DNA of 64,000 nt. Source: an uncultured Dehalococcoidaceae bacterium (GTDB lineage: Bacteria; Chloroflexota; Dehalococcoidia; Dehalococcoidales; RBG-16-60-22). Every line of letters begins with the position of its first letter. Position 1 is the first letter of the stretch. The position numbers and the translations under genes are program-made. Below are positions 3,111 to 61,232 of the stretch, in pieces. The stretch covers positions 1,175 to 65,174 of the forward strand of contig CAYPDM010000001.1 in the NCBI GenBank assembly GCA_964409485.1, written 5' to 3'. The notes beneath the pieces are model-generated. The model was not told the DNA's origin and ran no database searches. It worked only from the letters and a program-made list of their open reading frames with translations.

Positions 3111-3147
3111 GCTTCCGACGTCGCTAATATAAGGAGGTTATGAGGAT

Positions 3148-5355: not shown

Positions 5356-5442
5356 GAAAAGAATAATAAATTCTCTATGACCTGTAAATACGGGAGTAAT
5401 GACCGCTAACTCCGTAACGGGTCAGGAAAGGGGAAAAGAGAT

Positions 5443-38885: not shown

Positions 38886-40739
38886 TTAACGTGTTTTTAA
38901 GCCCAGTCCCTTCAGTTTGGAGGCGGTCGGTGTGCCGTTCTTATCCCAGCCGCGTTCGGCGTAGTACTCGTCGAGCATTTCATCGAGGTCCTTCTGGCTT
39001 ATAAGCTGCCCCTTGGATGCACCCGCCTTGATGGGTTCCGTCATGAGACGCTTGGGGAAGGTGTCGTCCTTGCGGGTGAAGCCCGCGCCGATATTGAACA
39101 GGCGGGCGACGTTATTCAACCTTTCCCCGATTTTCTCGATATCTCCGGCGGTGAAGTTCATTCCGGAGGCGGCGTTAACCAGGTCGGCGGTATTCTGGCA
39201 GGCTATCCCCGGCACCGCCATATCAAGCAGGAAGGCGCACATCGGGGCGCAGTCGCAGGTAACGCTGCGGATGTCTTGGTTCCACTTGGTCAGCCTTCCC
39301 TTACCTTCGATAGCCATTCTATCCACTTTTTCCGGCACGGGAATATCGAAGATTTCCTGGAAAGCGTAGCCCCGGTTGTGGTCAGCGCCGGTATAGGACG
39401 TGGCATAGTTAAGACCGTGCGCCTTGGCGCCCCGCACGTCGTAGGCTGGCAGTTCCAGTCCCTTAACGTGCATGGCGTAGAACTCGGAGCCCTTGCCGAT
39501 TATTTCGGCGGCTTTTCTGGTACCCTGACTAAGGATATCCCCGATGCCCTCGCGGTAGGTTATTTTACGCAGCATTTCCAGAAGGATGCTGTGGTTCCCG
39601 AACTTGAGTTCCAGTCCGTCAGTATCTTTTTTGGTGAGGATTCCCTTTTCGTAAAGCTCCATGGCGAACCCGATGGCCACACCTGCGGACATGGTATCCA
39701 GTCCATACTCGTCACAGAGACGATCGGCCGCGATTACCGCCGGTAAATAATCAATTCCCAGCGTGCTACCCAGCGAATAGGTTGTCTCATACTCGGGGCC
39801 TTCACTCATATAGCCTGCGTATGGCCCGGCTGTGACCAGTTTTATCTGGCTACAGCCTACCGGGCAGTCGTGACAGTGGGCTTTGTGGATAATCATCTTG
39901 GCTTGAGCCGCGTCACCGAGTCCCTTGACCATGTCGATTTCACCGGTAGCTGACCAGTTATTGATGGGATAGATGCCCATTGCCGAGGTAGCGTCTACGA
40001 CCATCGGCGTGCCCGATTTCGAAAACTGCGGATAGAGCACTGGACTTTCCTTCATGGCCTTGTTCATCGCCTGCCGGGCTTTCCTGAATTTCTCGGCATC
40101 GACCACATTAGGACGTTTAGTGCCTCGCACGGCGATGGCTTTGAGGTTCTTGGAGCCCATCACCGCCCCCAAACCCTTTCTTCCCGCAGCGCGGCGCTCG
40201 TTGACAATGCAGGCCATGGGACTCAGGTTCTCTCCGGCGGGGCCTATGCAGGCGATCCGGTAATTCTGGTCGCCGAGTTCATCCTTGATAACCAGCTGCG
40301 TATCGGTGGTCAACATGCCACTCACCTTATCGGCGTTGCGGAAACGCACCTTGCCGTCTTTGATGGCTACATAGGTGGGCTTTTCTGCTTTGCCTTCGAT
40401 GATTATCATGTCGTAGCCGGCCATTTTCATCTCGGCGGGGAACTGCCCACCGGCGAGGGCCATGCCGACGGCACCCGTCAGCGGCGACTTAGCCACCACG
40501 GCCATCCGGCTGGCACAGGCGGCTCCGGAAGCTGTCAGCGGCCCCACGGCAAAAATTAATTTATTCGCCGGGTCCAGCGCCGGTGTTTTCGGCTTCACTT
40601 CGTCGTAGAGGTATTTAATCGCAAACCCTGCCCCTCCCAGGTAATCCCGGACAAGCTCATCGGGGATTACTTCCTCCCGGCTGGTTTGGTCGGTGAGGTT
40701 TATTCTTAATATCTTGCCTGCATATCCACCTTTGTACAT
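38886..40739 (-). CDS. aor: aldehyde:ferredoxin oxidoreductase family enzyme, copy 2
   Basis: 617 aa. N-terminus GKILRINLTDQTSREE...YLGGAGFAIKY and CHDCPVGC (CX2CX3C). RBS AAGGAGG upstream. Confidence 0.85.
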   Translation of the reverse strand: MYKGGYAGKILRINLTDQTSREEVIPDELVRDYLGGAGFAIKYLYDEVKPKTPALDPANKLIFAVGPLTASGAACASRMAVVAKSPLTGAVGMALAGGQFPAEMKMAGYDMIIIEGKAEKPTYVAIKDGKVRFRNADKVSGMLTTDTQLVIKDELGDQNYRIACIGPAGENLSPMACIVNERRAAGRKGLGAVMGSKNLKAIAVRGTKRPNVVDAEKFRKARQAMNKAMKESPVLYPQFSKSGTPMVVDATSAMGIYPINNWSATGEIDMVKGLGDAAQAKMIIHKAHCHDCPVGCSQIKLVTAGPYAGYMSEGPEYETTYSLGSTLGIDYLPAVIAADRLCDEYGLDTMSAGVAIGFAMELYEKGILTKKDTDGLELKFGNHSILLEMLRKITYREGIGDILSQGTRKAAEIIGKGSEFYAMHVKGLELPAYDVRGAKAHGLNYATSYTGADHNRGYAFQEIFDIPVPEKVDRMAIEGKGRLTKWNQDIRSVTCDCAPMCAFLLDMAVPGIACQNTADLVNAASGMNFTAGDIEKIGERLNNVARLFNIGAGFTRKDDTFPKRLMTEPIKAGASKGQLISQKDLDEMLDEYYAERGWDKNGTPTASKLKGLGLKTR

Positions 40740-40804: not shown

Positions 40805-42019
40805 TTATTCAAAAATCCCTTCTAGTAGATACTTATCATACTCTTCCTCGGACATGCCTAACAGGTCTCGACAGATGTATTCTGTATGTTCACCGAGGCA
40901 GGGAGCGACGTTATACAGCCTCGCAGGTGTCTTTGATAATCGGGATGGTTGTCCCAGGTGCGAAAATCTCCCGAGCTCCTTATGGTTCTCAACCCAGAAA
41001 CACTCTCTTTCTTTCAGTTGCACATTGTTATACAGATCCTCTGCATTCTGAACAACGCCCGCAGCCACCCCCACTTTTTGAAGCATTCTCATAATTTCCT
41101 CAGCCTCATGTTGAGATGTCCACTGCTCTATCGACCGGTTAAGCTGCGCTTCGTTTTTCTTTCTGTCCGTAGCGGTACGGAATTCTGGCTTTTTCAGCCA
41201 GTCTGGTTCTCCAATTGCATTACAAAATGCCTGCCACTCCGTATCAGTAAGTACGCTGATAGCACACCAGCGGTCATCTCCTTTACACCGATAGACGCCA
41301 TGTGGCACTGCGTAATCGCTTGAATTTCCCCTTGCCTTCTCTTCTTTCTTGTTCACTAAATAATTGATCAGGGACGGGGCTAGAAGCTGGAGGCCGACCT
41401 CGAATTGAGAGACATCTATCAACTGCCCCTTGCCGGTTTTTCTCCGGTAATCTAACGCACCTATCAGGGCGGTAGCTGCGAAATGCGGTACTAAATAATC
41501 GGTATAAGCAACCATTAAAGATATTGGTTCTTGCTCCGGCCAACCAACGAGATTAACGATCCCGGCTAAACCGTTAATATGGTTGCCAAGCCCCGGATGG
41601 GTAGCCGCTGGGCCCGTCAAACCCTGGTTTGAATTACGTATCATGATGATGTCCGTTTTAATTTTTACCAGGTCATCGTAGCCCAATTTCCAACGCTCCA
41701 TCACCCCGGGTCTATGGCTATCCGCAACGACATCTGCGCTAGAAACTAATTTTCTGGCGATCTTCAAACCATTAGGTTTGTTCAGGTTAAGACTGATGCT
41801 GTATTTATTTGCGGCAAAATAGGCAAAGTAGCCGGCCCGATCAACTCCGGCAACCTCGTCTTTATATGGTGTGGATGTCCGCAGGAGGTCAGGCCGCTGG
41901 AAAGATTCTATACAGATCACCGTGGCGCCGTAGTCAGCCAGATATTTCAGGGTCAACGGACCGGCAATCGCCCAGCCAAAGTCGACGACTATTATCCCAT
42001 TAAAAACACTCTTATCCAT
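40805..42019 (-). CDS. family III (CaiB/BaiF-type) CoA-transferase, subunit/paralogue 2
   Basis: 404 aa. N-terminus GIIVVDFGWAIAGPLTLKYLADYGATVICIES fits the family III signature. Confidence 0.8.
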   Translation of the reverse strand: MDKSVFNGIIVVDFGWAIAGPLTLKYLADYGATVICIESFQRPDLLRTSTPYKDEVAGVDRAGYFAYFAANKYSISLNLNKPNGLKIARKLVSSADVVADSHRPGVMERWKLGYDDLVKIKTDIIMIRNSNQGLTGPAATHPGLGNHINGLAGIVNLVGWPEQEPISLMVAYTDYLVPHFAATALIGALDYRRKTGKGQLIDVSQFEVGLQLLAPSLINYLVNKKEEKARGNSSDYAVPHGVYRCKGDDRWCAISVLTDTEWQAFCNAIGEPDWLKKPEFRTATDRKKNEAQLNRSIEQWTSQHEAEEIMRMLQKVGVAAGVVQNAEDLYNNVQLKERECFWVENHKELGRFSHLGQPSRLSKTPARLYNVAPCLGEHTEYICRDLLGMSEEEYDKYLLEGIFE

Positions 42020-42062
42020 GTGTTTTTCTATTCGCTTTCAGTTTCCCAGGATTCGCCATGTT

Positions 42063-43316
42063 CTATATCACCCCCCTTTGCTGCAGAGCGGTCAGCTTGG
42101 AATGAGATAGACCCAGTTCACCCTGGTAAATATCGAGGTTATGTTCGCCAATTAAAGGAGCCCTGTGCTTAATCGTTAGCGGCGTTTGAGACAGCTTGGC
42201 GAAAGCACCGGGGTATGTAATGCTGGTTGATAGCTCGGGATGGTTGACCTCCACCCAGAAGTCCCTGGATTTCAACTGGGTATTTTCTAATATATCTTTA
42301 CTGGTGCAAACAGGGCATAACATTATTCCCCTTTTTTGAGCCTCATTGTAAAGTTCTTCTTTTGTATATTTCATGAACAGGCCGGCAATTGGAGCTTCTA
42401 TTAAGTCCTGCATCTCTTGAGTTTGATTCGCCATATCAAAAACTTCCCAGTCAAAGTCCTTCAAGTATTCGGGAACCATATTCTCCTCTTCCATCCACTC
42501 GACAATTGCCTTGTTAGTCTTGGCTCCGAAGGCACCACCCAAGATGTAAAATAGCACATATCCGTCCTGACATTTCCACAACAGACGTTGCTTGGTACCC
42601 GTCCACCGGCCAGTCATATAGGAGCCTGCTCGCCTCAAGACATTCTGGTTTAACTCCCAAAGAGGAATTGCGTTAGCAATCTCCCACAGCACACACTCCT
42701 GGGCTGATACATCGACGTGCTGCCCCTCCCCGCTGGTTTCACGATAGAAATGGGCCACCATTGAAGCGGCCGCGCTATGAGCCGAGGCGAGTAGAAAAAC
42801 CTGGGGCAGGCTGATCCTCAAAGGAGGTTGGTCTGGATTTCCCGTGATATACATCAGGCCACCCATAGCCATGACTACAATATCCGTCGCTTTATAATTC
42901 TTATACGGTCCATTAAGTCCAAAAGGTGTAATAGATGTCATTATCAAACGAGGATTTATCTTGCTTAGAGTCGTATAGCCAAGGCCAAGCTTGTCCAAAT
43001 AATCGGGCGTGAAAGATTCAATTACGAAGTCAGCTGTCTTGATTAATTTCTTGAAAATCTGCTGCCCATCTCTGGACTCGATATCTAGGGTAATACCTCG
43101 TTTGTTGAGATTATAGGCAAACCAATAAAGGCTTTTCTCGGGATTGGGGATATCATGATAAAAAGGTCCGAGGTTACGTGACTCGTCTCCTCCCGGGCTC
43201 TCGATCTTTATGACATCGGCTCCCAGGTCAGCGAGTATTTTACCGCAGAGAAAGCCTTTTTCGTTAGTTAAATCTAGCACACGATAAGAGTCCAGGAGCC
43301 CTTTTTGCTGTTCCAT
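42063..43316 (-). CDS. family III (CaiB/BaiF-type) CoA-transferase, subunit/paralogue 1
   Basis: 417 aa. YRVLDLTNEKGFLCGKILADLGADVIKIESPGGDESR fits the family III signature. Confidence 0.8.
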   Translation of the reverse strand: MEQQKGLLDSYRVLDLTNEKGFLCGKILADLGADVIKIESPGGDESRNLGPFYHDIPNPEKSLYWFAYNLNKRGITLDIESRDGQQIFKKLIKTADFVIESFTPDYLDKLGLGYTTLSKINPRLIMTSITPFGLNGPYKNYKATDIVVMAMGGLMYITGNPDQPPLRISLPQVFLLASAHSAAASMVAHFYRETSGEGQHVDVSAQECVLWEIANAIPLWELNQNVLRRAGSYMTGRWTGTKQRLLWKCQDGYVLFYILGGAFGAKTNKAIVEWMEEENMVPEYLKDFDWEVFDMANQTQEMQDLIEAPIAGLFMKYTKEELYNEAQKRGIMLCPVCTSKDILENTQLKSRDFWVEVNHPELSTSITYPGAFAKLSQTPLTIKHRAPLIGEHNLDIYQGELGLSHSKLTALQQRGVI

Positions 43317-43398: not shown

Positions 43399-44607
43399 TC
43401 ATCCCGTTTTTGGGCGGGTCGGCTTTTTAATCTTACTCTGCAAACGCGTATTAAGGGGTGTAATTTGATTTTCTCTAGACGGTAGAGCTACGATGGCAAT
43501 GCCGGGCATTACATCTTCTCCCCTCTGGTTAACCGCATGGCGTTCAATCTCCACACAGTAATCCCCATCATCATCGACATATTTTTTGATAACTCTGCCT
43601 TTAAGCCAGACTACGTCTGATAGATAAACGAATTTTCTGTATTCGGCATAGCTCCTCTTCAACCATGCGTCATCTCCCATCCAGTTGGTAATTAGATGAA
43701 TTCCCCAACAGTGCCTCTGCAGACCGACATCATACGCCTGTGGAAGTCCCATAGCATTAGCGGCCTGTTTGTTGTAGTGAACGGCAAAGATCGGCTCAAG
43801 AGCATTTGTATTTGGATCCCTGAAAGCCCATGCTGGATGCTTGCGGTAAGTTCTTAATGACACACCATGTGCCGCTATCCTTGGTATGGGCACTCCCCCA
43901 CCGATAATGTAAGCGACCTCATCAGTAGTTCCTAATGGACCCTTGACGACTGGCTTTAGCTCTTCGCCAATGTCAACGTCCTCCCAGTAACGGGGGACAG
44001 CTCCTCTAATTTCTTCGGAGAGGATTTCATTCTCAATTTCTTTTAGCTGCTTTTCTGTCCAAGGATGAGGGAGCTTAATGCTTTTTTGGGTGCCTTTCTG
44101 CTGGGCTTTACCTCTGGCAAAGCGTACCACCCACCAATGATACCTGGCTACCAAATCACCTCTCTGGTTCCAGTACTGGTTATCGAAATGGTCGATGACA
44201 GTCTCCTCGGCAAAGCTGCTCTTCTTCGGCCCATCAAAGCTTTTAAAAACACACTCTGCGGTTATTTTATCACCGAGATATATTGGCTTTAGGAACTCAA
44301 CGTCACAGCCGGCATGAAAACCACCAAGCCCCCGCCATCCAAACTGCACCTGGGCAAAACATGCCCAGATAAAGGAGGGAGGAGCAATAATGCTCTTATA
44401 TCGTGTATTTTCGGCATAATCGGCATCAACCCATAATCTATTCGGGTCACCGATACCTGCTGCGAATTTTAATATGGCCATCCTAGTAGCATATTCATTA
44501 TGCGTAGAGTCATCGATACGGAGTTTTGTCCCCAGCTTTGCTCGCATTCCATCTATCATCTCTCGAGTAATCGAGGCAGTTTCCATTTTTATTTTCTCTT
44601 CTTTCAT
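43399..44607 (-). CDS. double hot-dog fold (FAS1-like dehydratase N-domain + MaoC-like) enoyl-CoA hydratase/dehydratase
   Basis: 402 aa. N-half ILKFAAGIGDPNRLWVDADYAENTRYKSIIAPPSF; C-half ends in a MaoC-like beta sheet (VVWLKGRVIKKYVDDDGDYCVEIERHAVNQRGEDV). The start could be the second ATG (44586). Confidence 0.55.
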   Translation of the reverse strand: MKEEKIKMETASITREMIDGMRAKLGTKLRIDDSTHNEYATRMAILKFAAGIGDPNRLWVDADYAENTRYKSIIAPPSFIWACFAQVQFGWRGLGGFHAGCDVEFLKPIYLGDKITAECVFKSFDGPKKSSFAEETVIDHFDNQYWNQRGDLVARYHWWVVRFARGKAQQKGTQKSIKLPHPWTEKQLKEIENEILSEEIRGAVPRYWEDVDIGEELKPVVKGPLGTTDEVAYIIGGGVPIPRIAAHGVSLRTYRKHPAWAFRDPNTNALEPIFAVHYNKQAANAMGLPQAYDVGLQRHCWGIHLITNWMGDDAWLKRSYAEYRKFVYLSDVVWLKGRVIKKYVDDDGDYCVEIERHAVNQRGEDVMPGIAIVALPSRENQITPLNTRLQSKIKKPTRPKTG

Positions 44608-44920: not shown

Positions 44921-45427
44921 ATGAGTAAAGTCGAAGACAAAGAATATGACTTATGGATATTGTTAAGCCGGGTATATCACCTGATCGCTAAACTAAGAAA
45001 CTTAGAGCTTTTAAAATATAATATTCTACCGGTGCAATCTTATATTTTATTCATTATCAAAGCTCTCGGAAACGAAACTACCCCTACAGAAATATCCGGA
45101 TACGTGTATCAACAGAGAAGTTCAATCTCGGACATCCTCAATAGGATGGTAAAGCAAGGTCTAATAGTAAAAAGAAATCAATCGGGTGGGAATAGACGCG
45201 TAATAGTCACCTTAACTAACAATGGAGAAAGGGCTCTCGCCCTTTCCGCTGATAGAGAATATCTTCACAAAGTGATGTCCTCATTAACTGAGGGTAAAAA
45301 GCGGCAATTGGAATCATCCCTAGAAATGTTACGCGATGCCGCCATCAATGAACTTTCTGTAACCCAGAAGACAGTCATGCGGCCTTCTCTAATATCGGAG
45401 TATTATAGGAAGAAAAACCAATTGTAG
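44921..45427 (+). CDS. MarR-family winged-helix transcriptional regulator
   Basis: 168 aa. LLSRVYHLIAKLRNLELLKYNILPVQSYILFII...TPTEISGYVYQQRSSISDILNRMVKQGLIVKR shows the MarR wHTH pattern. RBS AAGGAAGG upstream. Confidence 0.8.
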   Translation: MSKVEDKEYDLWILLSRVYHLIAKLRNLELLKYNILPVQSYILFIIKALGNETTPTEISGYVYQQRSSISDILNRMVKQGLIVKRNQSGGNRRVIVTLTNNGERALALSADREYLHKVMSSLTEGKKRQLESSLEMLRDAAINELSVTQKTVMRPSLISEYYRKKNQL

Positions 45428-45664: not shown

Positions 45665-48157
45665 ATGTCAACCGTACACAGCGATAAAAAAGTCAAAGAT
45701 GCAGGCAACTGGCAGGAGTCCTTTACTCCAACCTGTTCCGAGCGCGTTCACAGAGTGAAAAATCGTGTTCTCAGACCGATGGAGATTTGTCTGGAACGTG
45801 CTCGTGCCGAGATGAAGGCTTTAGAACAATACAAGAACGAACCCAGAGTCATTCAGCGGGCACGCATCTTTGAGACCTATCTTAAAGAGAAAACCATCTA
45901 TATTCTGGAAGATGAGCTCATCGCAGGCAATATCACCAGCAAAATACGCGGTGCTTCATTCTCCAGTGAAATGTCTCGTTTTGTAGATGAAGAGCTTGGC
46001 GACCCGGTAAAGGACTTTGAGATTCGCCCGTACGAAAAGATTATAATTACCCCCCAAGAGAGGAAAGAGATTCGGGAAGTGCTTATTCCCTACTTCAAGG
46101 GGAAGACCCTTGGCGATTATATTCTGGAAATAGCTGACGAAGAAGTTAAGGAAAAGGCTTTCTCGATAACCTCTTCCTGCTCTCACATTCCGGTCATCGC
46201 TGATCTATCATTAGACAAAGACGTTGGCCATCAGATGGCCAACTACGAAAAGGTGCTCCATAAAGGTCTCAAAGGCATCAGAGAAGAGGTCGAGTGGTAT
46301 CTGGCCCAGCTCGACCAGCCGTATCAGCACTTTGGGCTTCAGGAGAAGCGTGACTTCTACAAGGCGGTACTGATTGCACTTGATGCGGCTATGGCCTACG
46401 CCAGGAGGTATGCTGACCTGGCTCGGGAAATGGCAGCCAAAGAAGCTGACCCCAAGCTCAAGCAGGAACTTGGGCACATCGCAGAGGTTTGCCAGTGGGT
46501 GCCGGCAAACCCTGCTAGGGACTGGTGGGAAGCCTTACAGTCCGTATGGATGATACACGTCCTCATCCACTGCGATGTTTACAACCTTGCCAACTCCCTG
46601 GGCCGCTTCGACCAGTATATGTATCCCTTCTACAAGAAATCAGTAATTGACGAGAAAACGATGAGCCGTGACGAGGCTCTGGAGCTGCTGGAATGTTTCT
46701 GGATAAAGTTTAATGAGTGGGCCATACTACTTAGCTATGACGTTGCCAGTTACCAGCCAGGGCAGGGGCTAAGTCAGACGATAACTATCGGGGGCCAGAC
46801 CCACGACGGCAGAGACGCCTGCAACGAAGTTACTATGCTCTGTCTGGAAGCCGAGGAACAATTAGCCCGGCCCCAGCCAGAATTCGCCATGAGAATATGG
46901 GAAGGGACACCTGATAGTTACCTAAAGAAAGCCACCGAGCTCATCCGTCTGGGCTGGGGTAAGCCGAAATTTATTGGCGACCGGAAAGCTATTCAAATGA
47001 CGGCTAAGGCCTATCCCGATAGAACCATCGAGGACTGGCGACAGTGTGTGATGATGGGGTGCTCGGAGCTTTGTTTGCCTCACATAACCATGCAGCATAG
47101 CTGGGAAGGAGTTTGCATTCTACCCAAGATACTGGAACTGGCGCTGAACAACGGAAAGTGTGCCCTCTGCGGCCGACAGATAGGACCCCTGACCGGTGAT
47201 CCCAGGAATTTTGAGTCTATGGCAGCAGTGAGGCGGGCGCTTCAGGAGCAGGTGTTTTACTGGATGAAGCACATGGCCAGGGGCATAAAATTAGTGAAGG
47301 AGGAACAGGCTGAGAGGATGATGGCTCCGTTTTGCTCTTCCCTCTCGGAGGGCCCGTTGCAGAAGGGGCTTGACCTTGCTCGGGGTGGTGCCTGGTACAC
47401 TACCTACGGTGTATATCTCGCCGGCCTCGCCGACACCGCTGACTCTCTAGCCGTGATTGACAAGCTAATCTATAACGACAAAAAGATAACATGGGACCAA
47501 ATGCTTGAGGCTATCAAGGCCAATTGGGAGGGCCACGAAAATCTTCGCCAACTTTGCATTAACGGCGTACCTAAATATGGTAATGATAATGATTTTGCCG
47601 ATAGCTGGGCGTCCTGGGTCATGGACACCTGGTACGATAACGTGGACTGGATTAACACCCAGAAGGATCTGCTGCCGTACTACGGTGGTTTATACATTGG
47701 TGCCGGGATTATCGGTCAGAACAATGTAACCTTCGGGCCCTGGCCTGGTGCTCTACCCAATGGACGCATCTATCCAAGACCTCTGGCTGACTGTATATCT
47801 CCGTCTCCAGGCGTCGACAAGAATGGCCCCACGGCTGTAGTCAAGTCAGTTAGTAAACTGCCAACACATCGGTTTGCCATGGGTGGTCCCCTGAATCTGA
47901 GGCTGAGTCGTCAACTCCTGGCCACTGACCGCGATCTGGACAACTTCGTATCCTTCCTCAGAGCCATTGAAGAACTGGGGATATATCACACACAGTTCAA
48001 TGTGATTTCATCGGAGCTCCTGCGCAAGGCGATGAAAGAACCAGAAAATTATCGGGACCTGCTGGTCAGGGTAGCCAGCTACTGTGCCTACTTTTGCGAG
48101 CTTACCGAGGAGCAACAGCTCGATATTATTAATCGCACCGAGCAGCAAGCCTGGTAA
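45665..48157 (+). CDS. glycyl radical enzyme family protein (PFL-like fold), radical-site motif reads RVASY
   Basis: 830 aa. C-terminal fingerprint YRDLLVRVASYCAYFCELTEEQQLDIINRTEQ. Cys loop VMMGCSELC (Cys466 at 47060-62, Glu468). RBS AAAGGAGG. An activase gene follows. Confidence 0.85.
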   Translation: MSTVHSDKKVKDAGNWQESFTPTCSERVHRVKNRVLRPMEICLERARAEMKALEQYKNEPRVIQRARIFETYLKEKTIYILEDELIAGNITSKIRGASFSSEMSRFVDEELGDPVKDFEIRPYEKIIITPQERKEIREVLIPYFKGKTLGDYILEIADEEVKEKAFSITSSCSHIPVIADLSLDKDVGHQMANYEKVLHKGLKGIREEVEWYLAQLDQPYQHFGLQEKRDFYKAVLIALDAAMAYARRYADLAREMAAKEADPKLKQELGHIAEVCQWVPANPARDWWEALQSVWMIHVLIHCDVYNLANSLGRFDQYMYPFYKKSVIDEKTMSRDEALELLECFWIKFNEWAILLSYDVASYQPGQGLSQTITIGGQTHDGRDACNEVTMLCLEAEEQLARPQPEFAMRIWEGTPDSYLKKATELIRLGWGKPKFIGDRKAIQMTAKAYPDRTIEDWRQCVMMGCSELCLPHITMQHSWEGVCILPKILELALNNGKCALCGRQIGPLTGDPRNFESMAAVRRALQEQVFYWMKHMARGIKLVKEEQAERMMAPFCSSLSEGPLQKGLDLARGGAWYTTYGVYLAGLADTADSLAVIDKLIYNDKKITWDQMLEAIKANWEGHENLRQLCINGVPKYGNDNDFADSWASWVMDTWYDNVDWINTQKDLLPYYGGLYIGAGIIGQNNVTFGPWPGALPNGRIYPRPLADCISPSPGVDKNGPTAVVKSVSKLPTHRFAMGGPLNLRLSRQLLATDRDLDNFVSFLRAIEELGIYHTQFNVISSELLRKAMKEPENYRDLLVRVASYCAYFCELTEEQQLDIINRTEQQAW

Positions 48158-48257: not shown

Positions 48258-49187
48258 TTGGCAAAAAATTCAGAGACGACCACCGCAAAGCGACTCGTTC
48301 TAAGCATTACCAGAATGACCATTCACAATGGCCCGGGAATACGTACCTTAATTCTGTTCAAAGGGTGCCCGTTACGTTGCCTATGGTGTTCGACGCCGGA
48401 GGCTCAGAAGGACGAAGCTGAGATTGCTCTTTACCCGGATAGATGCATCCATTGTGAACAGTGTGTCCCGGTCTGCTCCACGAACGCTATAAACTTAACG
48501 GGCGAGACGGTGAGCATTAATCGTGCTATATGCAACAATTGCGGCAAATGTGCTCAGGTTTGCTACACAGAAGCCATAAAACTTCTAGGACAGGAGATGA
48601 CTATCGAAGAACTGCTTACGGAGGTGAAAAAGGACGCCATTGTCTACAAACACTCCCGTGGCGGAGTCACCATCTCAGGAGGAGAGCCCCTGTTGAATCC
48701 TGAATTCACTCAGGAATTGCTTCGGGCATTCAAAGAAGAGAACATCAGTGTTGGAGTTGATACCTGCGGTCATGTGCCCTGGAAGAACATTGAGAAAGTG
48801 TTACCCTATATTGATTTTTTTCTCTGGGATATAAAGCATATGAATGGCAAAGAACACAGGAAATTCACCGGTGTCTCTAACAAGCTTATTCTAAGTAATG
48901 CTCGTTCTGTTTCCGAGAGAAATATACCTCTTTATATCAGGGTGCCCATAATCCCGGGCTACAACGATTCAGAAGAGAATATCAGGGCTATCTGTGAGTT
49001 CGCCCGTGATTTATCTTCACTGGTAAATATAGACCTTTTACCATTACACCATCTGGGGAAGGCAAGGTACGATAGCCTGAACCTTGCCTATCAGATAGCT
49101 GATATTCCTCTTATTCCAGATAGTGTCTTGCATAACATAAAAAGGCTGGTAGAATCTTACCAGTTGAATTGCAGTATTGTCGGCTAA
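48258..49187 (+). CDS. glycyl radical enzyme activating enzyme (radical SAM, with two auxiliary ferredoxin-type clusters)
   Basis: 309 aa. HNGPGIRTLILFKGCPLRCLWCSTPE (CX3CX2C), CIHCEQCVPVC, CNNCGKCAQVC and GGVTISGGEPLL. TTG start 48258 after AGGGAG; the alternative ATG would cut into the conserved N-terminus. Confidence 0.85.
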   Translation: MAKNSETTTAKRLVLSITRMTIHNGPGIRTLILFKGCPLRCLWCSTPEAQKDEAEIALYPDRCIHCEQCVPVCSTNAINLTGETVSINRAICNNCGKCAQVCYTEAIKLLGQEMTIEELLTEVKKDAIVYKHSRGGVTISGGEPLLNPEFTQELLRAFKEENISVGVDTCGHVPWKNIEKVLPYIDFFLWDIKHMNGKEHRKFTGVSNKLILSNARSVSERNIPLYIRVPIIPGYNDSEENIRAICEFARDLSSLVNIDLLPLHHLGKARYDSLNLAYQIADIPLIPDSVLHNIKRLVESYQLNCSIVG

Positions 49188-49201: not shown

Positions 49202-50089
49202 ATGATAAATATTGATATTGATGAGCTACTCAGTGGCTCAATTGACATGCATATGCATCCGGGCCCTGCCGGAGGTCCTTGCCGTCTCGATGCTCTTGAA
49301 GCAGCCGAGCAGGCAAAGCAGGCCAGAATGAGGGGCATTGTCCTTAAGAGCCATAGTTATACTGCCTCTGCAGTGGCAATCATCGTGAATCAATTAGTAC
49401 CTGACATACACGTTTTCGGAAGTGTCTGCCTCGATTATGAAATCGGGGGGCTTAATTCTCACGCCGTGGAAAACGCAGCCTATCTCGGGGCTAAAGTAGT
49501 CTGGATGCCTACCTTCTCTTCCGCCAATTCAATCAATAAGATGAGGGCGTTGGGACTTCCCCTTAAAGGTGAAGGACTCTCACTAATAGATGATGCGGGC
49601 AAACTAGTACCGGAAATGGAACCCATACTCACACTTATAAAAGAACATGATATGATATTAGCTACTGGTCATATTTCTCCGCAGGAAACGTTAATTCTCC
49701 TAAATGAGGCGCAGAGAATCGGGATAAAAAAATACATCATCACCCATCCTACGGATAAAGAATTTTCAGAAAAACTTTTAAGTATTGATGAGCTGCAGCA
49801 ACTGGCCAAGATAGGGGCGTTTATTGAGTTCACTCTGGTTGGAATGTTACCAAATGAGTTTTGTCATGACCCAGCACAAATCGCGCGGACAATCAAGACT
49901 ATCGGCGCGGAACACTGTATCATCAGTACCGATCTTGGTCAACCCCAAAATCCGCTCCCGGTCGAGGGTATGAGGTTACTTATGGCCACCCTGCTTCATC
50001 ACGGAATATCACAGGAAGAAGTTGAGTTGATGGCTAAAATAAATCCGGCAACTCTTTTGGACCTAGATAAAAACTCTGAAATTCATTAA
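49202..50089 (+). CDS. amidohydrolase-superfamily (metal-dependent TIM-barrel hydrolase-like) protein
   Basis: ORF 49169..50089; start moved to ATG 49202 after AAAGGAGAAG. HxH (DMHMHPG), later ATGHIS, ITHP and ISTDLG give the His/His/Asp order of the amidohydrolase fold. Substrate unknown. Confidence 0.5.
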   Translation: MINIDIDELLSGSIDMHMHPGPAGGPCRLDALEAAEQAKQARMRGIVLKSHSYTASAVAIIVNQLVPDIHVFGSVCLDYEIGGLNSHAVENAAYLGAKVVWMPTFSSANSINKMRALGLPLKGEGLSLIDDAGKLVPEMEPILTLIKEHDMILATGHISPQETLILLNEAQRIGIKKYIITHPTDKEFSEKLLSIDELQQLAKIGAFIEFTLVGMLPNEFCHDPAQIARTIKTIGAEHCIISTDLGQPQNPLPVEGMRLLMATLLHHGISQEEVELMAKINPATLLDLDKNSEIH

Positions 50090-50165: not shown

Positions 50166-51947
50166 ATGACAAGTAAAAAAATAGCAGTTTTGAGACCGCA
50201 AGGCAAAGCCTCTCCAATACAATTGGAGCCTATGGCACCTCGGCTTGATACCCTCGAGGGCAAAACAGTATACATCGTAGACATGAATTTTCCGCGAACG
50301 CATCAATTCTGGGAAGAGATGCAAAAAATGCTCGCCAACAGATACCCCGAGACGACCTGGGTACTCAGGATTAAGGTAGGCACTTACTTTCATAATGACC
50401 CAGAGCTATGGGCTGAAATTAAGGAAAAAGGCGATGGAGTGATAATGGGTATCGGTCAGTTAGATACCTGTACGCCGTCGGTCATCATCTTTTGCTCGAT
50501 ATTAGAAAAATTAGGGCTGCCTACAGCACCCGTTGTTACTGAGGCATTTCCAAGAATCGCAAAGAGCTTTGCGTATAAGAAGGGAATGCCCGAACTACGA
50601 TTTACTTTTGTTCCCCATCCTTTCGCAAATAGACCACTCGAGGTACACCGGAAATATCTAGAGGGTAACGACCCAATAAACGGCAAGCCAGTTTTAGATG
50701 AAATTGTTGAGGCATTGACCAAACCGATAACTGATAAGGAAACGAAGACAGGGACTATAGATAGGTCAATGCCGAGGCTGTTAGAGCCTGATACCCCGGA
50801 GAATCTGGAGCGCCTCTTTATTGAAAAAGGATGGACTGATTATCTTCCGATAGTGCTTCCTACGGAAGAAAGAGTAGCCGAGATGCTCGAAGGAACGAGC
50901 CATAAACCTGATGAAGTAGTTGGCATAATGCAACCCATCCCTCCCAACGAGGTCTGGGACAACCTCACCAAGCGGCTTGGTTCCGGTGGACTGAGAAGAG
51001 GAGCTGAAAGAGAGCATTTCCCGGTAGTTATGCAACCCTCCCCTCCTCATGAGGCCTGGGAGTATACCGTAGAGCATATCGCCATTAACGCCGTGATGGC
51101 AGGAGCCAAACCAGAGCATTTCCCGGTAATATTGGCCATAGCATCGACAGGGGCAACCTCGCTGTTCAGTTCCGCGACTTCTATGACGAGGATGGTCGTC
51201 GCTAATGGGCCTATACGAAAAGAGATAAATATGAATTGTGGTCTGAGTGCACTGGGCCCGTTTAATCAGGCTAACGCTGTCATTGGAAGGGCCTGGACAC
51301 TCATATCCAAGAATCTAGGAGGATCGATACCGGGTGAAACTTATCTGGGAGATTTAGGTAATAATACCAACTACAATAATAATTGTTTCGCAGAGAACGA
51401 GGAGGTACTGCCCGAAGGATGGAGTCCTTTACATGTACAAAAGGGTTATAAGTCAGATGAAAGCGTTGTTAGTATTTTAGGTGGTTGGAGTATGCTTAAC
51501 TACGCTGCTTATAAACCACATCCACATCACGAAATAATGAAACGGCAGCTGCAAAGTTTTGAAACCAGTGGAGCCGGCACACACCACACTCCTGGAATAA
51601 ACCCCGGAACTCAAGCTACTTTTTTGTTAAGCCCGATAACGTCAAGGGATCTTAAGAATGAAGGCTTCAATAGCAAGGAGCAGTTAAGCCAATGGCTCAA
51701 GGAAAATACCTATATGACTCTTTGGAACTATTGGGCAGCTATGCCTGATGACCTTGAATCTGGCAAGGCAGGTGTCGAGCCATTTGCGTCTTTGTTGAAA
51801 CTTCCACCGGAAGCGAACTCGCCGCGACCACTTATCCTGCGCGATATACCGGTTGAGATAGTGGTAGTTGGAGGGGGAACCGATGCATTTTGGATGGCTG
51901 GTGATCTTTCTTGTATGGCGTCAGCATCAATAGATACATGGAGGTAA
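50166..51947 (+). CDS. unassigned 593-aa protein, paralogue P1 (two-domain, function unknown)
   Basis: Long ORF, last gene of the GRE transcription unit. Clearly homologous to 53700..55487 (blocks LPIVLPTEERV, IAINAVMAGAKPEHFPVILA, GPIRKEINMN). No named family recognised. Confidence 0.7.
   Translation: MTSKKIAVLRPQGKASPIQLEPMAPRLDTLEGKTVYIVDMNFPRTHQFWEEMQKMLANRYPETTWVLRIKVGTYFHNDPELWAEIKEKGDGVIMGIGQLDTCTPSVIIFCSILEKLGLPTAPVVTEAFPRIAKSFAYKKGMPELRFTFVPHPFANRPLEVHRKYLEGNDPINGKPVLDEIVEALTKPITDKETKTGTIDRSMPRLLEPDTPENLERLFIEKGWTDYLPIVLPTEERVAEMLEGTSHKPDEVVGIMQPIPPNEVWDNLTKRLGSGGLRRGAEREHFPVVMQPSPPHEAWEYTVEHIAINAVMAGAKPEHFPVILAIASTGATSLFSSATSMTRMVVANGPIRKEINMNCGLSALGPFNQANAVIGRAWTLISKNLGGSIPGETYLGDLGNNTNYNNNCFAENEEVLPEGWSPLHVQKGYKSDESVVSILGGWSMLNYAAYKPHPHHEIMKRQLQSFETSGAGTHHTPGINPGTQATFLLSPITSRDLKNEGFNSKEQLSQWLKENTYMTLWNYWAAMPDDLESGKAGVEPFASLLKLPPEANSPRPLILRDIPVEIVVVGGGTDAFWMAGDLSCMASASIDTWR
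50928..51131 (+). repeat. in-frame 2 x 102-bp tandem duplication inside P1
   Basis: Copy 1 (50928-51029) and copy 2 (51030-51131) share their ends (ATGCAACCC..CC.CC at the 5' end, GAGCATTTCCCGGTA at the 3' end) but have diverged centres. The peptides are MQPIPPNEVW...EREHFPVV and MQPSPPHEAW...KPEHFPVI. Confidence 0.75.
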
Positions 51948-53699: not shown

Positions 53700-55487
53700 T
53701 TAGCAGCCTGATTCGGTCAATGTGGCTCCTCTTATCAACTTTGTCTTGTGTGCCGTACGGAAATATGACATTCCAAAAGAATAACCCGGTATACTACCGG
53801 ACACGACGATATGAATGTCTTCCGGGTTTACGACAGGGACCTTTCCTCCTGGTTTGAGGGATTCTTTAATCACCGGTAAGCGGTCTTCAGGAATGGCATC
53901 GTGTGGATAGAATATGTCTATATCGGGGGGTTTGGTGTTAATCCTGTCATGTATACCCTGGATTTCCTGTTCACTGAGCTCTTCGTACGGTACAAGTGTA
54001 CTTTCATAGAGATAATCTCGCAGGCTTCGCTTGCTATTATAACCGATACGCTGCAGCATGATAGCCATTTCGGGATGAATGACGAGTATGTGTTTTCTGA
54101 GATGAGCCATGGGGTTAGCCACCCCAACTTTATATTGAGCAAACGTGCCGCGGTCAGCAGCTATATCTTTCACCATGCTGTCGAGGACCGGCTTTACATC
54201 CCAGGGCTCAACCACTCCTCCGCCATATATCCTCATACCTAAACCACCCATGACGGTGTCCACGGTCACGCAACTATCTTCCGGCTTGTAACCCAGGCCC
54301 TCATTAAACGTTTCCCAGGGGCTCTGCTCTATATTTTCGGCGAAAGTGTAGAAGGTATGCGGGGACGGGCGGCCGATCAGCGCCATATCGATCTCTCCCG
54401 GCCACAGGTAACCGATATTGATCAGGCTCAATCTTACGGCGCGGCCGATGGTATTGTTGGCTCGCCAGCCGTGACCTAATAAGCCTACTCCGGAATTCAT
54501 GTTAATTTCTTTGCCAAGAGGCCCGCTTACCATTATCATAAGAGTGAAGGAGCCTTCTGAACTCATCATGTGAGTGTAAGTACCCTCTTCAGTCAGGCAT
54601 TCCATGGCTGCAATTATCACCGGCAGATACTCAGGCCTTGCCCCCGCCATCACCGCGTTAATAGCTATCTTTTCAACAGTGGCGATACCGTTTCGATAAG
54701 GTACCCGGCCTATAACTTCATTGGGAGAACGCTTGGTCCCTGTTAGCATCCACTTAACGGCCTGTTCCGTGGGAGGTATCAGGGGCAACCCATCGCCCCA
54801 GTGGTTATCAAGGTACAGCCGGTTGAATGATTCAAGGGCGGACTCATAACTCTCCGCAGTAACCTCAACTGTTTCAGCAGTCTTTTTTAAGGCCTTTAGC
54901 TCCGGGTTTTTCTCCTCCGGTGCCAGGGGCCGGTTTAGGGCGTCGATAATAAGGTCAATGGACGCTTCGGCAACAGGCCTAATACTTTCCACGGTCAACC
55001 GGTTCGGGTAATAATCTATTGAAGGCAGGCTTACGATACGTAACGCGGGCATTCCCGCGTCCTCGGCTGACATCTTGGCGGTGTGAGTAGCGTTATCACC
55101 GACCACGAAAACGCCGGGTTTGCCAAGTTTTTCTAATGCGACTACCTGCAAGCACTGAATCCAGCCTCCCATGCCGTTATCGCCGACGCCGTAGATAAAA
55201 GTATCCATTTCTTTTTTTGCCTTCTCCGCCGCCTCGGCATCTCCCCAGACAAGCCGAATGGTCGTCGCTGTTGGATACCTTTCTTTCAGCAGTTCCTCGA
55301 CTGCGATACAGAAATTATCCCCACCTTTCTTACCGTCCCAGATTATTCCGATCTTCTTACCTGCCAGATCCTTTATGCGAGGGTTGATGAGCCCCGAAGG
55401 CACCGGAACTTCAAGCACACCCTGAGGATTTAAACACAACAATGAGACTTTTTCTTTCAATTTTTTCACCCCTTCTTGAAATAACAT
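53700..55487 (-). CDS. unassigned 595-aa protein, paralogue P2 (two-domain, function unknown)
   Basis: Homologous along its length to P1 (HWGDGLPLIPPTEQAV, IAINAVMAGARPEYLPVIIA, GPLGKEINMN, NNTIGRAV). Lies between the UROD-like and esterase genes. Confidence 0.7.
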   Translation of the reverse strand: MLFQEGVKKLKEKVSLLCLNPQGVLEVPVPSGLINPRIKDLAGKKIGIIWDGKKGGDNFCIAVEELLKERYPTATTIRLVWGDAEAAEKAKKEMDTFIYGVGDNGMGGWIQCLQVVALEKLGKPGVFVVGDNATHTAKMSAEDAGMPALRIVSLPSIDYYPNRLTVESIRPVAEASIDLIIDALNRPLAPEEKNPELKALKKTAETVEVTAESYESALESFNRLYLDNHWGDGLPLIPPTEQAVKWMLTGTKRSPNEVIGRVPYRNGIATVEKIAINAVMAGARPEYLPVIIAAMECLTEEGTYTHMMSSEGSFTLMIMVSGPLGKEINMNSGVGLLGHGWRANNTIGRAVRLSLINIGYLWPGEIDMALIGRPSPHTFYTFAENIEQSPWETFNEGLGYKPEDSCVTVDTVMGGLGMRIYGGGVVEPWDVKPVLDSMVKDIAADRGTFAQYKVGVANPMAHLRKHILVIHPEMAIMLQRIGYNSKRSLRDYLYESTLVPYEELSEQEIQGIHDRINTKPPDIDIFYPHDAIPEDRLPVIKESLKPGGKVPVVNPEDIHIVVSGSIPGYSFGMSYFRTAHKTKLIRGATLTESGC

Positions 55488-57276: not shown

Positions 57277-58332
57277 ATGGCTATAGAATACACCAAGTCA
57301 GAAGCGAAAAAGTGGTCTAAAAAGAATCTTAAGGGGTTGGAGGTACCTATTTTCCCTTCTTTTAACCCGGATCTGCAGGAACTGGATGAAGAAGGTATCA
57401 GGTATGATGTCAATCATATTATAGCTAATGGCTTTACCTCTGCCCTGATCGCGCCTGAAGCCTGTGGAATGACATTTGAAGAACGAAAAAGATTTGTGGA
57501 AATAGTAGTTGATGAAGCGAGGGGTAAAATACATACTTCGGTATCGGTAATGCAGGACACGGTCGAACAGGATATCGAGATGCTTCAACACATGGAAAAA
57601 GTTGGCGGCACTTTCGCCACGCTTGGTCACCCCGTACAATACTACCCTAGGTCGGTAGAGGACATCTTCCAGATGTATAAATACATGTGCGATTCTACCA
57701 ACCTGGCAATAGTTTTCTACACTGGCAGGCTCCATACCAGACAATTCCACCCGAGTTATTTTCCCCCGGAACTCCTCCCCAGAATAGCCGATATTCCAAA
57801 TGTTGTGGCTATGAAGGTTGGCGGCGGTAGTTCCATGGCGATTACCGTAATGTCCTTCCGACTCTGCGGTGATAAAATCCTGGTCAATGACCCCATCCCT
57901 GATAGATGGTTTATTACCGTCCCGGTGTACGGCCAGCAGTGGTCCGGTGCCGGGCCTTTTTACGGGATGCAGACTCCTGAAAAACCTCGCATGGTCGAAA
58001 TTTTCGACCTGTTAACGAAGGGTGAAATTGATAAAGCAATGGACATTTATTGGGAACTGGGGGCTTTAAGAGATGGTGCGGGCGGATTGGCAGATTCATA
58101 TTTTCACACAGGCATTGTCACCGCACTCAGTGATAAATATGCCCACTGGTGTAACGGCGGCAACGGTGGCACCGTAAGACAGCCCACCGGCAGGCTGTTC
58201 GATTACCAGAAAGAGAGAATCAGAGCAGGTCTTAGAGCACTAGGACTGACTCCGCGTGAACCTGAAGAGGAATTCTATGTGGGTAGAGTAAATTACGCCA
58301 AAGGGGCTAGACTTAAAAAATTCGAGGTATGA
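57277..58332 (+). CDS. DapA/N-acetylneuraminate-lyase-family (class I aldolase fold) protein, copy 1
   Basis: 351 aa. LDEEGIRYDV...GMTFEERKRFVEIVVDEARGKI...LAIVFY...IPNVVAMKVGG gives a putative Schiff-base Lys in the usual strand position. The GTTGE block is replaced by PEACGMT. Confidence 0.65.
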   Translation: MAIEYTKSEAKKWSKKNLKGLEVPIFPSFNPDLQELDEEGIRYDVNHIIANGFTSALIAPEACGMTFEERKRFVEIVVDEARGKIHTSVSVMQDTVEQDIEMLQHMEKVGGTFATLGHPVQYYPRSVEDIFQMYKYMCDSTNLAIVFYTGRLHTRQFHPSYFPPELLPRIADIPNVVAMKVGGGSSMAITVMSFRLCGDKILVNDPIPDRWFITVPVYGQQWSGAGPFYGMQTPEKPRMVEIFDLLTKGEIDKAMDIYWELGALRDGAGGLADSYFHTGIVTALSDKYAHWCNGGNGGTVRQPTGRLFDYQKERIRAGLRALGLTPREPEEEFYVGRVNYAKGARLKKFEV

Positions 58333-58398
58333 AAAGCCTCTGAAACCTATTTATATCCGCGTAAGGTGAAAGCGAAATAAAAAATAAGGAGTGAAAAA

Positions 58399-60039: not shown

Positions 60040-60104
60040 CATAACAACCATCACGATAAAAGTTGAATTAACAAGGAAAAACTACATTGTAGTAATAAAG
60101 GAGT

Positions 60105-61139: not shown

Positions 61140-61232
61140 GTACTAGGTAGGAAAGTATTTAGGCTTGGCATTGATATAACTGTTATACCGTAACAAAAGT
61201 ACAACCGAAGAAAGAAAAGGAGGGGAAAACAA

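Follow-up and report, generated by a model that had tools for sequence, protein, structure and literature searches.

Aminoacyl radical enzymes (AAREs), which include the serinyl radical enzymes (SREs), were described by Fu et al. (2024, JACS 146:29645; PMC11528403). With its activating enzyme (AE), DaSRE-AE, the SRE of Dethiosulfatibacter aminovorans DSM 17477 (DaSRE, WP_073048690) forms a stable Cα radical on a serine, detected by EPR as a four-line signal at 13% spin and with two β-protons having Aiso values of about 60 and 30 MHz (PMC11528403). The S801G variant of DaSRE gives a glycyl doublet in EPR, the partner AE is needed for the radical, and the evidence for thiyl formation is indirect only, coming from a Gly variant of a threonyl enzyme (PMC11528403). 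The SREs first listed comprised 21 sequences, and in all published SREs the Ser codon is AGY, one transition away from GGY; 1,2-eliminase chemistry was suggested for AAREs by the same authors (PMC11528403). A function or substrate is reported for no AARE in the literature. Ser in place of Gly seemed to run counter to the rule central to glycyl radical enzymes (GREs), and before October 2024 such a finding would have come as a great surprise.

Results

The radical site

A 64,000-nucleotide stretch of DNA from an uncultured Dehalococcoidaceae bacterium, here referred to as the window, was found to carry a gene at positions 45665..48157 (+ strand) that is predicted to encode an 830 aa protein made up of a PFL-like barrel and a C-terminal radical domain. 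Pfam assigned residues 26-667 to the PFL-like family (PF02901, 6.5e-171) and residues 708-811 to the Gly_radical family (PF01228, 2.2e-24), and more than 30 solved GREs aligned end-to-end with the protein (HMMER), in agreement with the original prediction of a PFL-fold radical enzyme.

Bases 48068-48082 read AGG GTA GCC AGC TAC, corresponding to R802 V803 A804 S805 Y806, such that the predicted radical-storing residue is Ser805 (codon AGC, 48077..48079, + strand) in place of the radical Gly of GREs. The GRE fingerprint RVxG[FWY]x6-8[FL]x4Qx2[IV]x2R (PMC13450708) was located by a regular expression at 48068..48136 (+ strand, residues 802-824, RVASYCAYFCELTEEQQLDIINR); all positions match save for the change of G to S, and the Gly version of the expression gave no match. 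Full-length HMMER alignments placed S805 under the Gly of RVAGY in 8iof ('llvrvaGYtaff') and in CutC 5a0u ('livrvaGYsayf'), which confirms the earlier assignment of the Ser to the radical column. An alternative radical Gly was sought in the last 69 residues, where the sole Gly is G772, and thus no other Gly can occupy this column.

The Cys loop VMMGC466SE468LCLP is encoded at 47048..47080 (+ strand), with the codon of Cys466, the presumed thiyl radical site, at 47060-47062, and Glu468 is the putative acid/base residue of the GCxE motif. G465 and C466 were invariant in an alignment of 12 sequences (A1), Cys occupied the 466 column in 166/166 aligned superfamily members, and the GCxE motif was retained by most members of the Ser clade described below. 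An AF2 model of the SRE, calculated from the A1 alignment, had a mean pLDDT of 43.6 and was discarded.

Conservation of the serine

The same Ser was present in all relatives down to 49% identity. Homologues drawn from NCBI, JGI, ENA and Logan were grouped into clusters at 90% identity, and the Ser was found in 120/120 of the best-matching clusters, which share 63-100% identity with the window protein and comprise 1,103 sequences. Ten 90% clusters, among them that of the window protein, were looked up, and the checked members that include a C-terminus all have the Ser (36/36), as do 45/45 motif-bearing loci of GTDB genomes at 49-95% identity. Across these 45 loci the Ser codon was AGC in 28 and AGT in 17, with neither GGN nor TCN occurring. 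Loci at 39% identity or less had GGN at the radical codon, with a single exception, ACA (Thr). When clustering was performed at 50%, the Ser clade was reduced to 2 representatives, and the next similarity, at 39% identity, carries Gly. On these alignments, the sharing of the Ser is far beyond chance.

One possibility raised originally was that AGC arose by an error in base calling or assembly, in which case the gene would really read GGC and encode an ordinary glycyl radical enzyme. A single transition does separate AGC from GGC, but the Ser occurs in all of the independent assemblies examined, namely the 36 members, the best 120 clusters and the 45 loci from different MAGs, and both synonymous AGY codons are found, never GGN. 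The search of homologues and related genomes thus recovered the Ser throughout and GGC in no sister genome, and the error was discarded, its probability being considered vanishingly small. For the first AAREs, the raw reads were inspected by Fu et al. (PMC11528403).

Placement among the serinyl radical enzymes

In a neighbour-joining (NJ) tree from which the radical column had been left out, the Ser clade was monophyletic with 100/100 bootstrap support; the test was by NJ only, and the DaSRE sequence in the tree is approximate, having been rebuilt from an OCR-damaged supplement. The clade includes the window protein, the approximate DaSRE, MBN1831961.1 (L008), MCL5959289.1 (P0120), HEY95974.1 (L017, the W403 SRE) and the SRE of Oscillospiraceae MAG C.6_5; Table S2 of Fu et al. 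includes this MAG by name. The sister of the Ser clade is a Thr-dominated clade, which agrees with the published tree (PMC11528403).

Several SREs from the same Table S2 are close to the window protein. MBN1831961.1 (MAG Zod_Metabat.1351) is 93% identical and is grouped with the window protein at 90%, MCL5959289.1 is 64% identical, and HEY95974.1 and MBN2077277.1 both belong to a 64% cluster. In the subclade of the window protein, clustering at 90% identity yields no fewer than 120 clusters, and a single genome often carries several paralogues. On the tree and these identities, the window gene is one further member of the already-described SRE class. The suggestion that the Ser represents a real variant was therefore correct in that a genuine Ser-radical variant class exists, but the variant is not new, as the class was reported by Fu et al. 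in 2024 and includes MBN1831961.1 from the same 90% cluster.

Two further observations concern the membership of these groups. One member of the window protein's 90% cluster is annotated as coming from a Dehalococcoidales bacterium MAG. An Ala-bearing paralogue (L020) is nested within the Ser clade, and the radical residue may then have switched more than once, which would contradict a picture of single origin.

The activating enzyme and selection on the gene

Separated from the SRE gene by 100 nt is a gene for a radical SAM activating enzyme (SRE-AE; 48258..49187, + strand) with Pfam Radical_SAM and Fer4 domains, which scored 340 bits with TIGR02494 against a cutoff of 174. Motif scans located the CX3CX2C motif (CPLRCLWC) at 48366-48389, two ferredoxin-type CX2CX2CX3C clusters at 48444-48476 and 48531-48563, and GGEPLL at 48678-48695, all on the + strand. 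With all cluster motifs and GGEPLL present and the TIGR02494 cutoff passed, the activase is intact as had been proposed. It is approximately 42% identical to DaSRE-AE.

Within 8-kb flanks, an AE was found in 29/45 dereplicated Ser-clade loci, mostly adjoining the SRE. About one third of the loci have no adjacent activase, so some paralogues either rely on an AE encoded far away or are possibly inactive. In a 73% identical relative (P0032/L004), the gap of approximately 900 bp downstream holds neither an activase nor an activase-like ORF.

The dN/dS values were 0.08-0.16 for the whole gene and 0-0.085 for the radical domain. It had also been suggested that the protein is a decaying or non-radical pseudo-enzyme. 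A non-radical form would no longer be capable of radical chemistry and would have been retained in a binding, regulatory or structural role. Replacement of the radical Gly is generally known to kill the activity of canonical GREs, and the loci that have no adjacent activase would fit such a role. Against this stand the strong purifying selection, tightest in the radical domain, the invariance of the Ser, of Cys466 and of the rest of the fingerprint, the co-conservation of an intact activase in the 29 loci, and the stable radical formed by DaSRE of the same clade (PMC11528403). From the dN/dS values, the invariant Cys466 and the co-conserved activase, the gene is judged not to be decaying, and the pseudo-enzyme possibility was rejected as very improbable.

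A different role for the activase would be to turn Ser805 into a modified residue, for example formylglycine or dehydroalanine, leaving no persistent radical. Radical SAM enzymes with auxiliary clusters are generally known to convert Ser or Cys of sulfatases to formylglycine. The window activase, however, scores as a member of the GRE-AE family with TIGR02494 and not as an anSME/SPASM protein, and the EPR of DaSRE indicates a Cα radical with two β-protons, meaning that the side chain is intact (PMC11528403). Such a modification is regarded as extremely improbable.

Proposed mechanism

In all likelihood the gene encodes a functional SRE, in which the adjacent activase sets a Cα serinyl radical on Ser805 that is relayed to Cys466; at approximately 48% identity to DaSRE, the window protein is inferred to act like it. 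Reductive cleavage of SAM by the activase would generate a 5'-deoxyadenosyl radical, which would take the Cα hydrogen of Ser805 to leave a stable Cα-centred serinyl radical. In an L-residue, this hydrogen occupies the position that is pro-R in Gly. This radical would still be of the backbone Cα type, residing on Ser and not on Gly. During turnover, the Ser805 radical would pass to Cys466, and the resulting thiyl radical would attack the substrate by hydrogen-atom abstraction, the route taken by canonical GREs.

Gene neighbourhood

Downstream of the activase, and in the SRE operon, is a gene (49202..50089, + strand) for a DUF6282 protein (Pfam 2e-62), an amidohydrolase-fold metal-dependent TIM barrel. 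Its invariant residues are D15, H17, H19, K49, H157, H182 and D244, and its AF2 model (pLDDT 87) gave Foldseek matches to amidohydrolases and decarboxylases. Of the Ser loci, 16/45 carry DUF6282, as against 0/37 of the Gly loci. As a candidate SRE-specific partner it was rejected, since it also occurs without an SRE, beside UGSC and URO-D genes. Further downstream lies a gene for a UGSC-family protein of 593 aa (50166..51947, + strand; Pfam UGSC 8.9e-24), a family with members in 12/45 of the Ser loci and in none (0/37) of the Gly loci. A PDB sequence search with the DUF6282 and UGSC-family proteins returned zero matches, as did a relaxed Pfam scan of UGSC C-terminal regions, and no functional information on DUF6282 and UGSC was found in the literature.

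Directly upstream of the SRE gene is a MarR-family regulator (44921..45427, + strand; Pfam MarR_2), which is kept in close orthologous loci. It is preceded by a divergent gene (43399..44607, - strand; Pfam FAS1_DH_region/MaoC) for a MaoC-like double hot-dog (enoyl-CoA) hydratase. This hydratase is the commonest neighbour other than the AE (19/45 Ser loci, 0/37 Gly loci), and in Ser loci it is often co-directional and just 5' of the SRE. Next is a pair of family III CoA-transferase genes (40805..43316, - strand; Pfam CoA_transf_3), a pair that recurs in 17/45 of the Ser loci and in none (0/37) of the Gly loci. The best PDB matches of the two products are 9fn0_A for 42063-43316 (2.8e-69) and 9fn0_B for 40805-42019 (1.9e-78), such that the pair resembles two different subunits of benzylsuccinate CoA-transferase (BbsEF-like). 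An aldehyde:ferredoxin oxidoreductase (AOR) gene follows at 38886..40739 (- strand; Pfam AFOR_N/AFOR_C), and AOR occurs in 9/45 Ser loci and 2/37 Gly loci. Across the Chloroflexota-type SRE loci, DHDPS-like proteins are also recurrent, with none in Gly-type loci. Genes for acyl-CoA dehydrogenase (ACAD), enoyl-CoA hydratase (ECH)/MaoC and short-chain dehydrogenase (SDR) are likewise seen repeatedly in Ser-clade loci, and Gly-type loci lack them. No recurrence of thiolase was seen across Ser-clade loci, and the annotations of the genes near the window SRE revealed no component of a microcompartment shell.

The conserved neighbours, namely the MaoC-like hydratase, the BbsEF-like pair, AOR and DUF6282, weakly suggest that the enzyme may feed or start a CoA-dependent organic-acid catabolic route. 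A more specific and quite speculative proposal, for which the chances appear low, is that the Chloroflexota-type SRE subclade performs the key radical step of a not yet described pathway of CoA-dependent catabolism that would operate in anoxic soils and sediments. At its core, the operon would then consist of the MaoC-like hydratase, in some cases a DHDPS-like protein, the SRE, the AE and the DUF6282 amidohydrolase, with the BbsEF-like CoA-transferase pair, AOR and UGSC-family proteins encoded nearby.

The resemblance of the CoA-transferases to both of the different benzylsuccinate CoA-transferase subunits also brings up a hydroalkylating enzyme similar to the X-succinate synthases and not a 1,2-eliminase, the substituted succinate passing to the BbsEF-like CoA-transferases and hydratases. 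The recurrence of CoA-transferase pairs, ACAD, ECH/MaoC and SDR genes in Ser loci and their absence from Gly-type loci would suit this chemistry. However, the SRE scores 485 bits with CutC, versus 264.8 with TutD (BSS) and 312.4 with MasD, the GCxE motif is retained, Fu et al. regard the closest clades as eliminase-like (PMC11528403), and thiolase is not recurrent in the loci. The small β/γ subunit genes do not flank the SRE either: no BSS-like β/γ gene was found beside it, and in the 238-nt spacer upstream of it there are only two ORFs, of 47-55 aa and poor in Cys. A hydroalkylating SRE is therefore considered unlikely.

Discussion

The Chloroflexota-type SRE neighbourhood is a modest addition to a published class and hints at CoA-dependent acid catabolism. 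Fu et al. did not find this recurrent neighbourhood, which reduces the range of substrates to be considered. SREs are much commoner in environmental metagenomes than the sequences first listed would indicate, given the number of clusters in this subclade alone, and the window locus has many relatives in Dehalococcoidia and other anaerobes, which show the recurrent neighbourhood. Should the proposed CoA-dependent pathway prove true, it would provide the first function for any AARE and might account for the replacement of Gly by Ser; the chemistry could resemble hydroalkylation or be a new type of elimination.

Among the canonical enzymes of the superfamily, CutC, HypD, glycerol/propanediol dehydratase and HpsG/IslA share with the window protein the fold, the domain order, the GCxE loop and the activase family, and CutC is among its best solved-structure matches (3.8e-144). 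The canonical PFL2-type eliminases differ in having Gly at the radical site, in being at most 39% identical, and in their gene neighbourhoods. The window protein scored 600.4 bits with TIGR01774, below the cutoff of 678.2, and was far under all cutoffs of the equivalog models (CutC, HypD, HpsG, etc.).

The CoA-transferase pair, with its best matches to BbsE/BbsF-type subunits, and the ACAD, ECH and SDR genes that recur in the clade loci may point to a likeness with the benzylsuccinate (Bbs) β-oxidation system. That system differs in that the catalytic subunit of the window is not BSS-like by its TutD score and is accompanied by no β/γ subunits, and the window hydratase is of the MaoC type, whereas BbsH is of the crotonase type.

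The threonyl (FpTRE1/2) and alanyl (DgARE) radical enzymes belong to the same superfamily and likewise have a Cα radical on a residue other than Gly and a dedicated AE; their radical residue is a different one, they are 32-36% identical to the window protein, and TREs usually have two enzymes per AE.

The locus of MBN1831961.1 likewise has SRE-AE-UGSC, and the window copy comes from a different MAG. DaSRE is of like architecture and length class, with S801 there corresponding to S805 here. A frameshift-tolerant dynamic-programming alignment gave the identity of about 48%, which is probably somewhat below the true value as the DaSRE sequence is OCR-damaged; a value of approximately 31% from plain tblastn was discarded because of roughly 26 OCR frameshifts in the supplement DNA, and the D. 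aminovorans genome was absent among the best 80 loci of the genome-contig search. DaSRE falls in a Firmicutes subclade, and the window protein in a large Chloroflexota-dominated subclade. Both have the GC[ST]E..LPHITM Cys loop and an adjacent activase with ferredoxin domains, and both belong to one clade with 100% bootstrap support.

Serine in the radical column

The 830-aa ORF at 45665-48157 (+) is matched by the Pfam families PFL-like (residues 26-667, 6.5e-171) and Gly_radical (residues 708-811, 2.2e-24), and in a phmmer search of PDB sequences it aligns over its full length with over 30 glycyl radical enzymes (GREs) of solved structure. Codons 48068-48082 read AGG GTA GCC AGC TAC, giving R802-V803-A804-S805-Y806, and in the phmmer alignments S805 lies directly beneath the Gly of 'RVAGY' in 8iof and in CutC (5a0u). 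Residues 802-824 fit the GRE fingerprint RVxG[FWY]x6-8[FL]x4Qx2[IV]x2R (PMC13450708) throughout, with G->S as the sole mismatch. As the last 69 residues contain one Gly only, G772, there is no alternative Gly for the radical column. The Cys loop VMMGC466SE468LCLP is encoded at 47048-47080, and the ORF next to the enzyme gene (48258-49187) encodes an activase with CPLRCLWC, two CX2CX2CX3C motifs and GGEPLL. TIGR02494, the model for GRE activases, gives it 340 bits (cutoff 174). The original prediction of a Ser codon at the radical site, beside an intact-looking activase, was thus borne out in every detail, including the assignment of the column.

Conservation and selection

Three readings of this Ser had been considered: a base-call or assembly error, a decaying or non-radical pseudo-GRE, or a real variant. 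Among homologues from NCBI, JGI, ENA and Logan, Ser occupies the radical column in all of the best 120 clusters (90% clustering, 63-100% identity; 1,103 member sequences). When 40 members of ten 90% clusters, including that of the window protein, were checked, all 36 reaching the C-terminus had Ser. The motif in the best 120 clusters is mostly RVAS[YF], with RVGS[YF] in three, RAGSY in two and RVAS[S/T/N] in four. The aromatic residue at +1 is replaced in the RVAS[S/T/N] proteins (cluster proteins P0029, P0033, P0036 and P0114, and genomic loci L016 and L017), and RAGSY in place of RVxSY (P0037, P0046) is a further departure from the GRE fingerprint.

To the 80 best loci from GTDB genomes, scanned at one per species, six further loci were added. 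In the 45 of these where the motif can be read and identity to the window protein is 49-95%, the residue is always Ser, with AGC (28) or AGT (17) as its codon and never TCN or GGN; loci at 39% identity or less all have a GGN Gly codon, save one with Thr (ACA). In a 50%-identity search of 1.84 billion representatives the Ser clade comprised two representatives (74% and 51% identity), beyond which identity dropped sharply to 39% (566 bits) and the residue was Gly. Four orthologues of 91-95% amino-acid identity gave pairwise dN/dS values of 0.08-0.16 over the whole gene and 0-0.085 within the radical domain, and Cys466 is invariant among aligned relatives. The occurrence of Ser across independent clusters and loci, always as AGC or AGT, refutes an assembly error, and its conservation, the low dN/dS and the invariant Cys466 refute a decaying pseudo-GRE.

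Relationship to serinyl radical enzymes

The real variant was the right reading, but it has already been published. Fu et al. 2024 (J Am Chem Soc 146:29645; PMC11528403) described homologues of GREs in which the radical Gly is replaced by Ala, Ser or Thr, named aminoacyl radical enzymes (AAREs), and listed 21 serinyl radical enzymes (SREs) with AGY codons throughout. Treating the SRE from Dethiosulfatibacter aminovorans (DaSRE, S801) with SAM, dithionite and its own activase gave a stable radical on about 13% of monomers; the four EPR lines fit a radical centred on the Cα of Ser and coupled to two inequivalent β-protons. S801G gave a glycyl doublet, and S801A and S801T no signal (PMC11528403). 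A 2026 review ranks AAREs as the seventh GRE class, none with known function (PMC13450708), and a literature search for a later functional assignment found none.

The listed SRE MBN1831961.1 is the protein of locus L008 (MAG Zod_Metabat.1351); it shares 93% identity and a 90%-identity cluster with the window protein. HEY95974.1 and MBN2077277.1, also in Table S2 of Fu et al., form the cluster of L017 (64% identity), and MCL5959289.1 of the same table is P0120 (64%). In a neighbour-joining tree of 166 superfamily members that left out the radical column, a single clade (100/100 bootstraps) unites the Ser-bearing sequences and one Ala-bearing paralogue, and a Thr-dominated group is its sister, as likewise reported by Fu et al. 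(PMC11528403). DaSRE, rebuilt from the OCR-damaged DNA in the paper supplement by frameshift-tolerant alignment, falls inside the Ser clade (100/100). The window protein scores 600 bits on TIGR01774, under the cutoff of 678, and since the defining Gly is also absent it is not a canonical GRE. It has all the sequence-level defining features of an SRE; judged by these, its Ser-for-Gly exchange is a known phenomenon and the protein a further member of the class.

Paralogues and an Ala variant

Several MAGs have multiple SRE paralogues. Only one of the four loci in fen_1014 has an adjacent activase, so that several SREs may share one activase, an arrangement reported for threonyl radical enzymes. 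In MAG MFD01231.bin.2.26 an SRE 73% identical to that of the window (L004/L015, 12494-13747) adjoins an MFS transporter. An activase is missing from its vicinity, and the downstream gap contains no ORF resembling one; a second SRE locus of this MAG (L044) has an activase, which may therefore be shared.

Locus L020 (MAG JAZDPP010000196.1, Pseudomonadota) contains an SRE and, 6.5 kb downstream, a GRE-type paralogue (8092-10690; 58% identical to the window SRE) with RVAAY and an Ala codon GCC at 10501. The Ala enzymes of Fu et al. form a separate clade (PMC11528403), and this paralogue is nested within the Ser clade (100/100); if real, it may mean that Ala enzymes arose a second time, independently, through a Ser->Ala switch.

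Gene neighbourhood

At the window locus one strand carries genes for MarR, the SRE, its activase, DUF6282 and a UGSC-family protein, and the divergent strand those for a MaoC-like hydratase, two family III CoA-transferases, an aldehyde:ferredoxin oxidoreductase (AOR) and ABC permeases. Clustering of all ORFs up to 8 kb from the enzyme covered 45 dereplicated Ser-clade and 37 Gly-type loci. Activases occurred at 29/45 and 19/37, respectively, short-chain dehydrogenases at 10/45 and 2/37, and AOR at 9/45 and 2/37. Absent from all 37 Gly-type loci were MaoC-like double hot-dog proteins (19/45 Ser-clade loci), family III CoA-transferases, usually a pair (17/45), DUF6282 (16/45), DHDPS-family proteins (15/45), UGSC-family proteins of ~590 aa and SBP_bac_5 binding proteins (12/45 each), carboxylesterase and enoyl-CoA hydratase (7/45 each) and acyl-CoA dehydrogenase (5/45). 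In a subclade of 56-63% identity the order MaoC-like - (DHDPS-like) - SRE - activase - DUF6282 recurs on one strand. Fu et al. found gene neighbourhoods too varied for interpretation (PMC11528403); the recurrent pattern is mainly limited to the Chloroflexota-type subclade.

These neighbours hint that the SRE takes part in the CoA-dependent breakdown of an organic acid. The best PDB matches of the two window CoA-transferases are the two different subunits of benzylsuccinate CoA-transferase (9fn0_A, 2.8e-69; 9fn0_B, 1.9e-78), with the next matches far behind, as would suit a hydroalkylase with Bbs-like handling of a substituted succinate. That role is improbable, as the catalytic subunit is much closer to eliminases than to the X-succinate synthases BSS or MasD, and no genes for β/γ subunits were found beside it. 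The conserved neighbourhood of the SRE provides a lead toward AARE function, and in this lies the remaining value of the finding.

The invariant residues of DUF6282 (D15, H17, H19, K49, H157, H182, D244) form an amidohydrolase metal-ligand pattern, and its AF2 model (pLDDT 87) resembles amidohydrolase-fold hydrolases/decarboxylases (TM about 0.55-0.6). DUF6282 is not an SRE-specific partner, since some loci have it next to UGSC and URO-D genes but lack an SRE.

In two ~590-aa proteins of the window (50166-51947 (+), 53700-55487 (-)), a UGSC (selenoprotein-family) domain at the N-terminus is followed by a large C-terminal portion that matches nothing in Pfam or PDB. Such proteins recur with DUF6282 and URO-D-like genes, with or without an SRE; at L088 (567-2321) the UGSC gene, called as pieces of 98 and 472 aa, may contain a Sec (TGA) codon. 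At 57277-62876 (+), a DHDPS-family (class I aldolase-like) gene and, behind it, a gene for an SBP_bac_5 solute-binding protein form a pair that occurs twice in tandem. The two AOR paralogues (19458-21368 (+), 38886-40739 (-)) share 28% identity. The SRE island is preceded, some 14 kb upstream, by a large serine recombinase (Resolvase, Recombinase and Zn ribbon; 30303-31988 (-)).

Host

Genes for CODH (Prismane family), ACS/CODH beta and CdhD (1140-6789 (+)) mark the host as a Wood-Ljungdahl-type anaerobe, in keeping with the Dehalococcoidales bacterium MAG to which one protein in the SRE's 90% cluster is assigned by annotation. A formate-dehydrogenase alpha-type gene (10800-13562 (+)) consists of two ORFs joined by an in-frame TGA (11907-11909) within HCARL-U-HAPT. 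An in-frame TGA in a motif of this type is a classic selenocysteine site, and the gene is thus read as a Sec-containing FdhA, not a broken gene.

Proposed mechanism and comparison with DaSRE

By homology with DaSRE, the activase would take the Cα hydrogen from Ser805; as the Cα-H of an L-residue has the position of the Gly pro-R hydrogen, Fu et al. infer that abstraction differs in its stereochemistry (PMC11528403). The captodatively stabilised Cα radical would be the resting radical store, most likely passed to Cys466 to give a thiyl radical that would attack the substrate. The Ser radical itself has been demonstrated for DaSRE only, and a thiyl radical in AAREs is supported indirectly, by a Gly variant of a threonyl enzyme (PMC11528403). 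Glu468 of the GCxE motif, kept in most Ser-clade members, is shared with eliminase and decarboxylase GREs.

The rebuilt DaSRE sequence is ~48% identical to the window SRE, a level that no Gly enzyme approaches beyond 39%. Ser stands in the same column of both, their Cys loops are almost the same (GCTESFLPHITM in DaSRE and GCSELCLPHITM in the window SRE), and the two activases are ~42% identical. DaSRE belongs to a Firmicutes subclade, whereas the window SRE belongs to the larger, Chloroflexota-dominated one.
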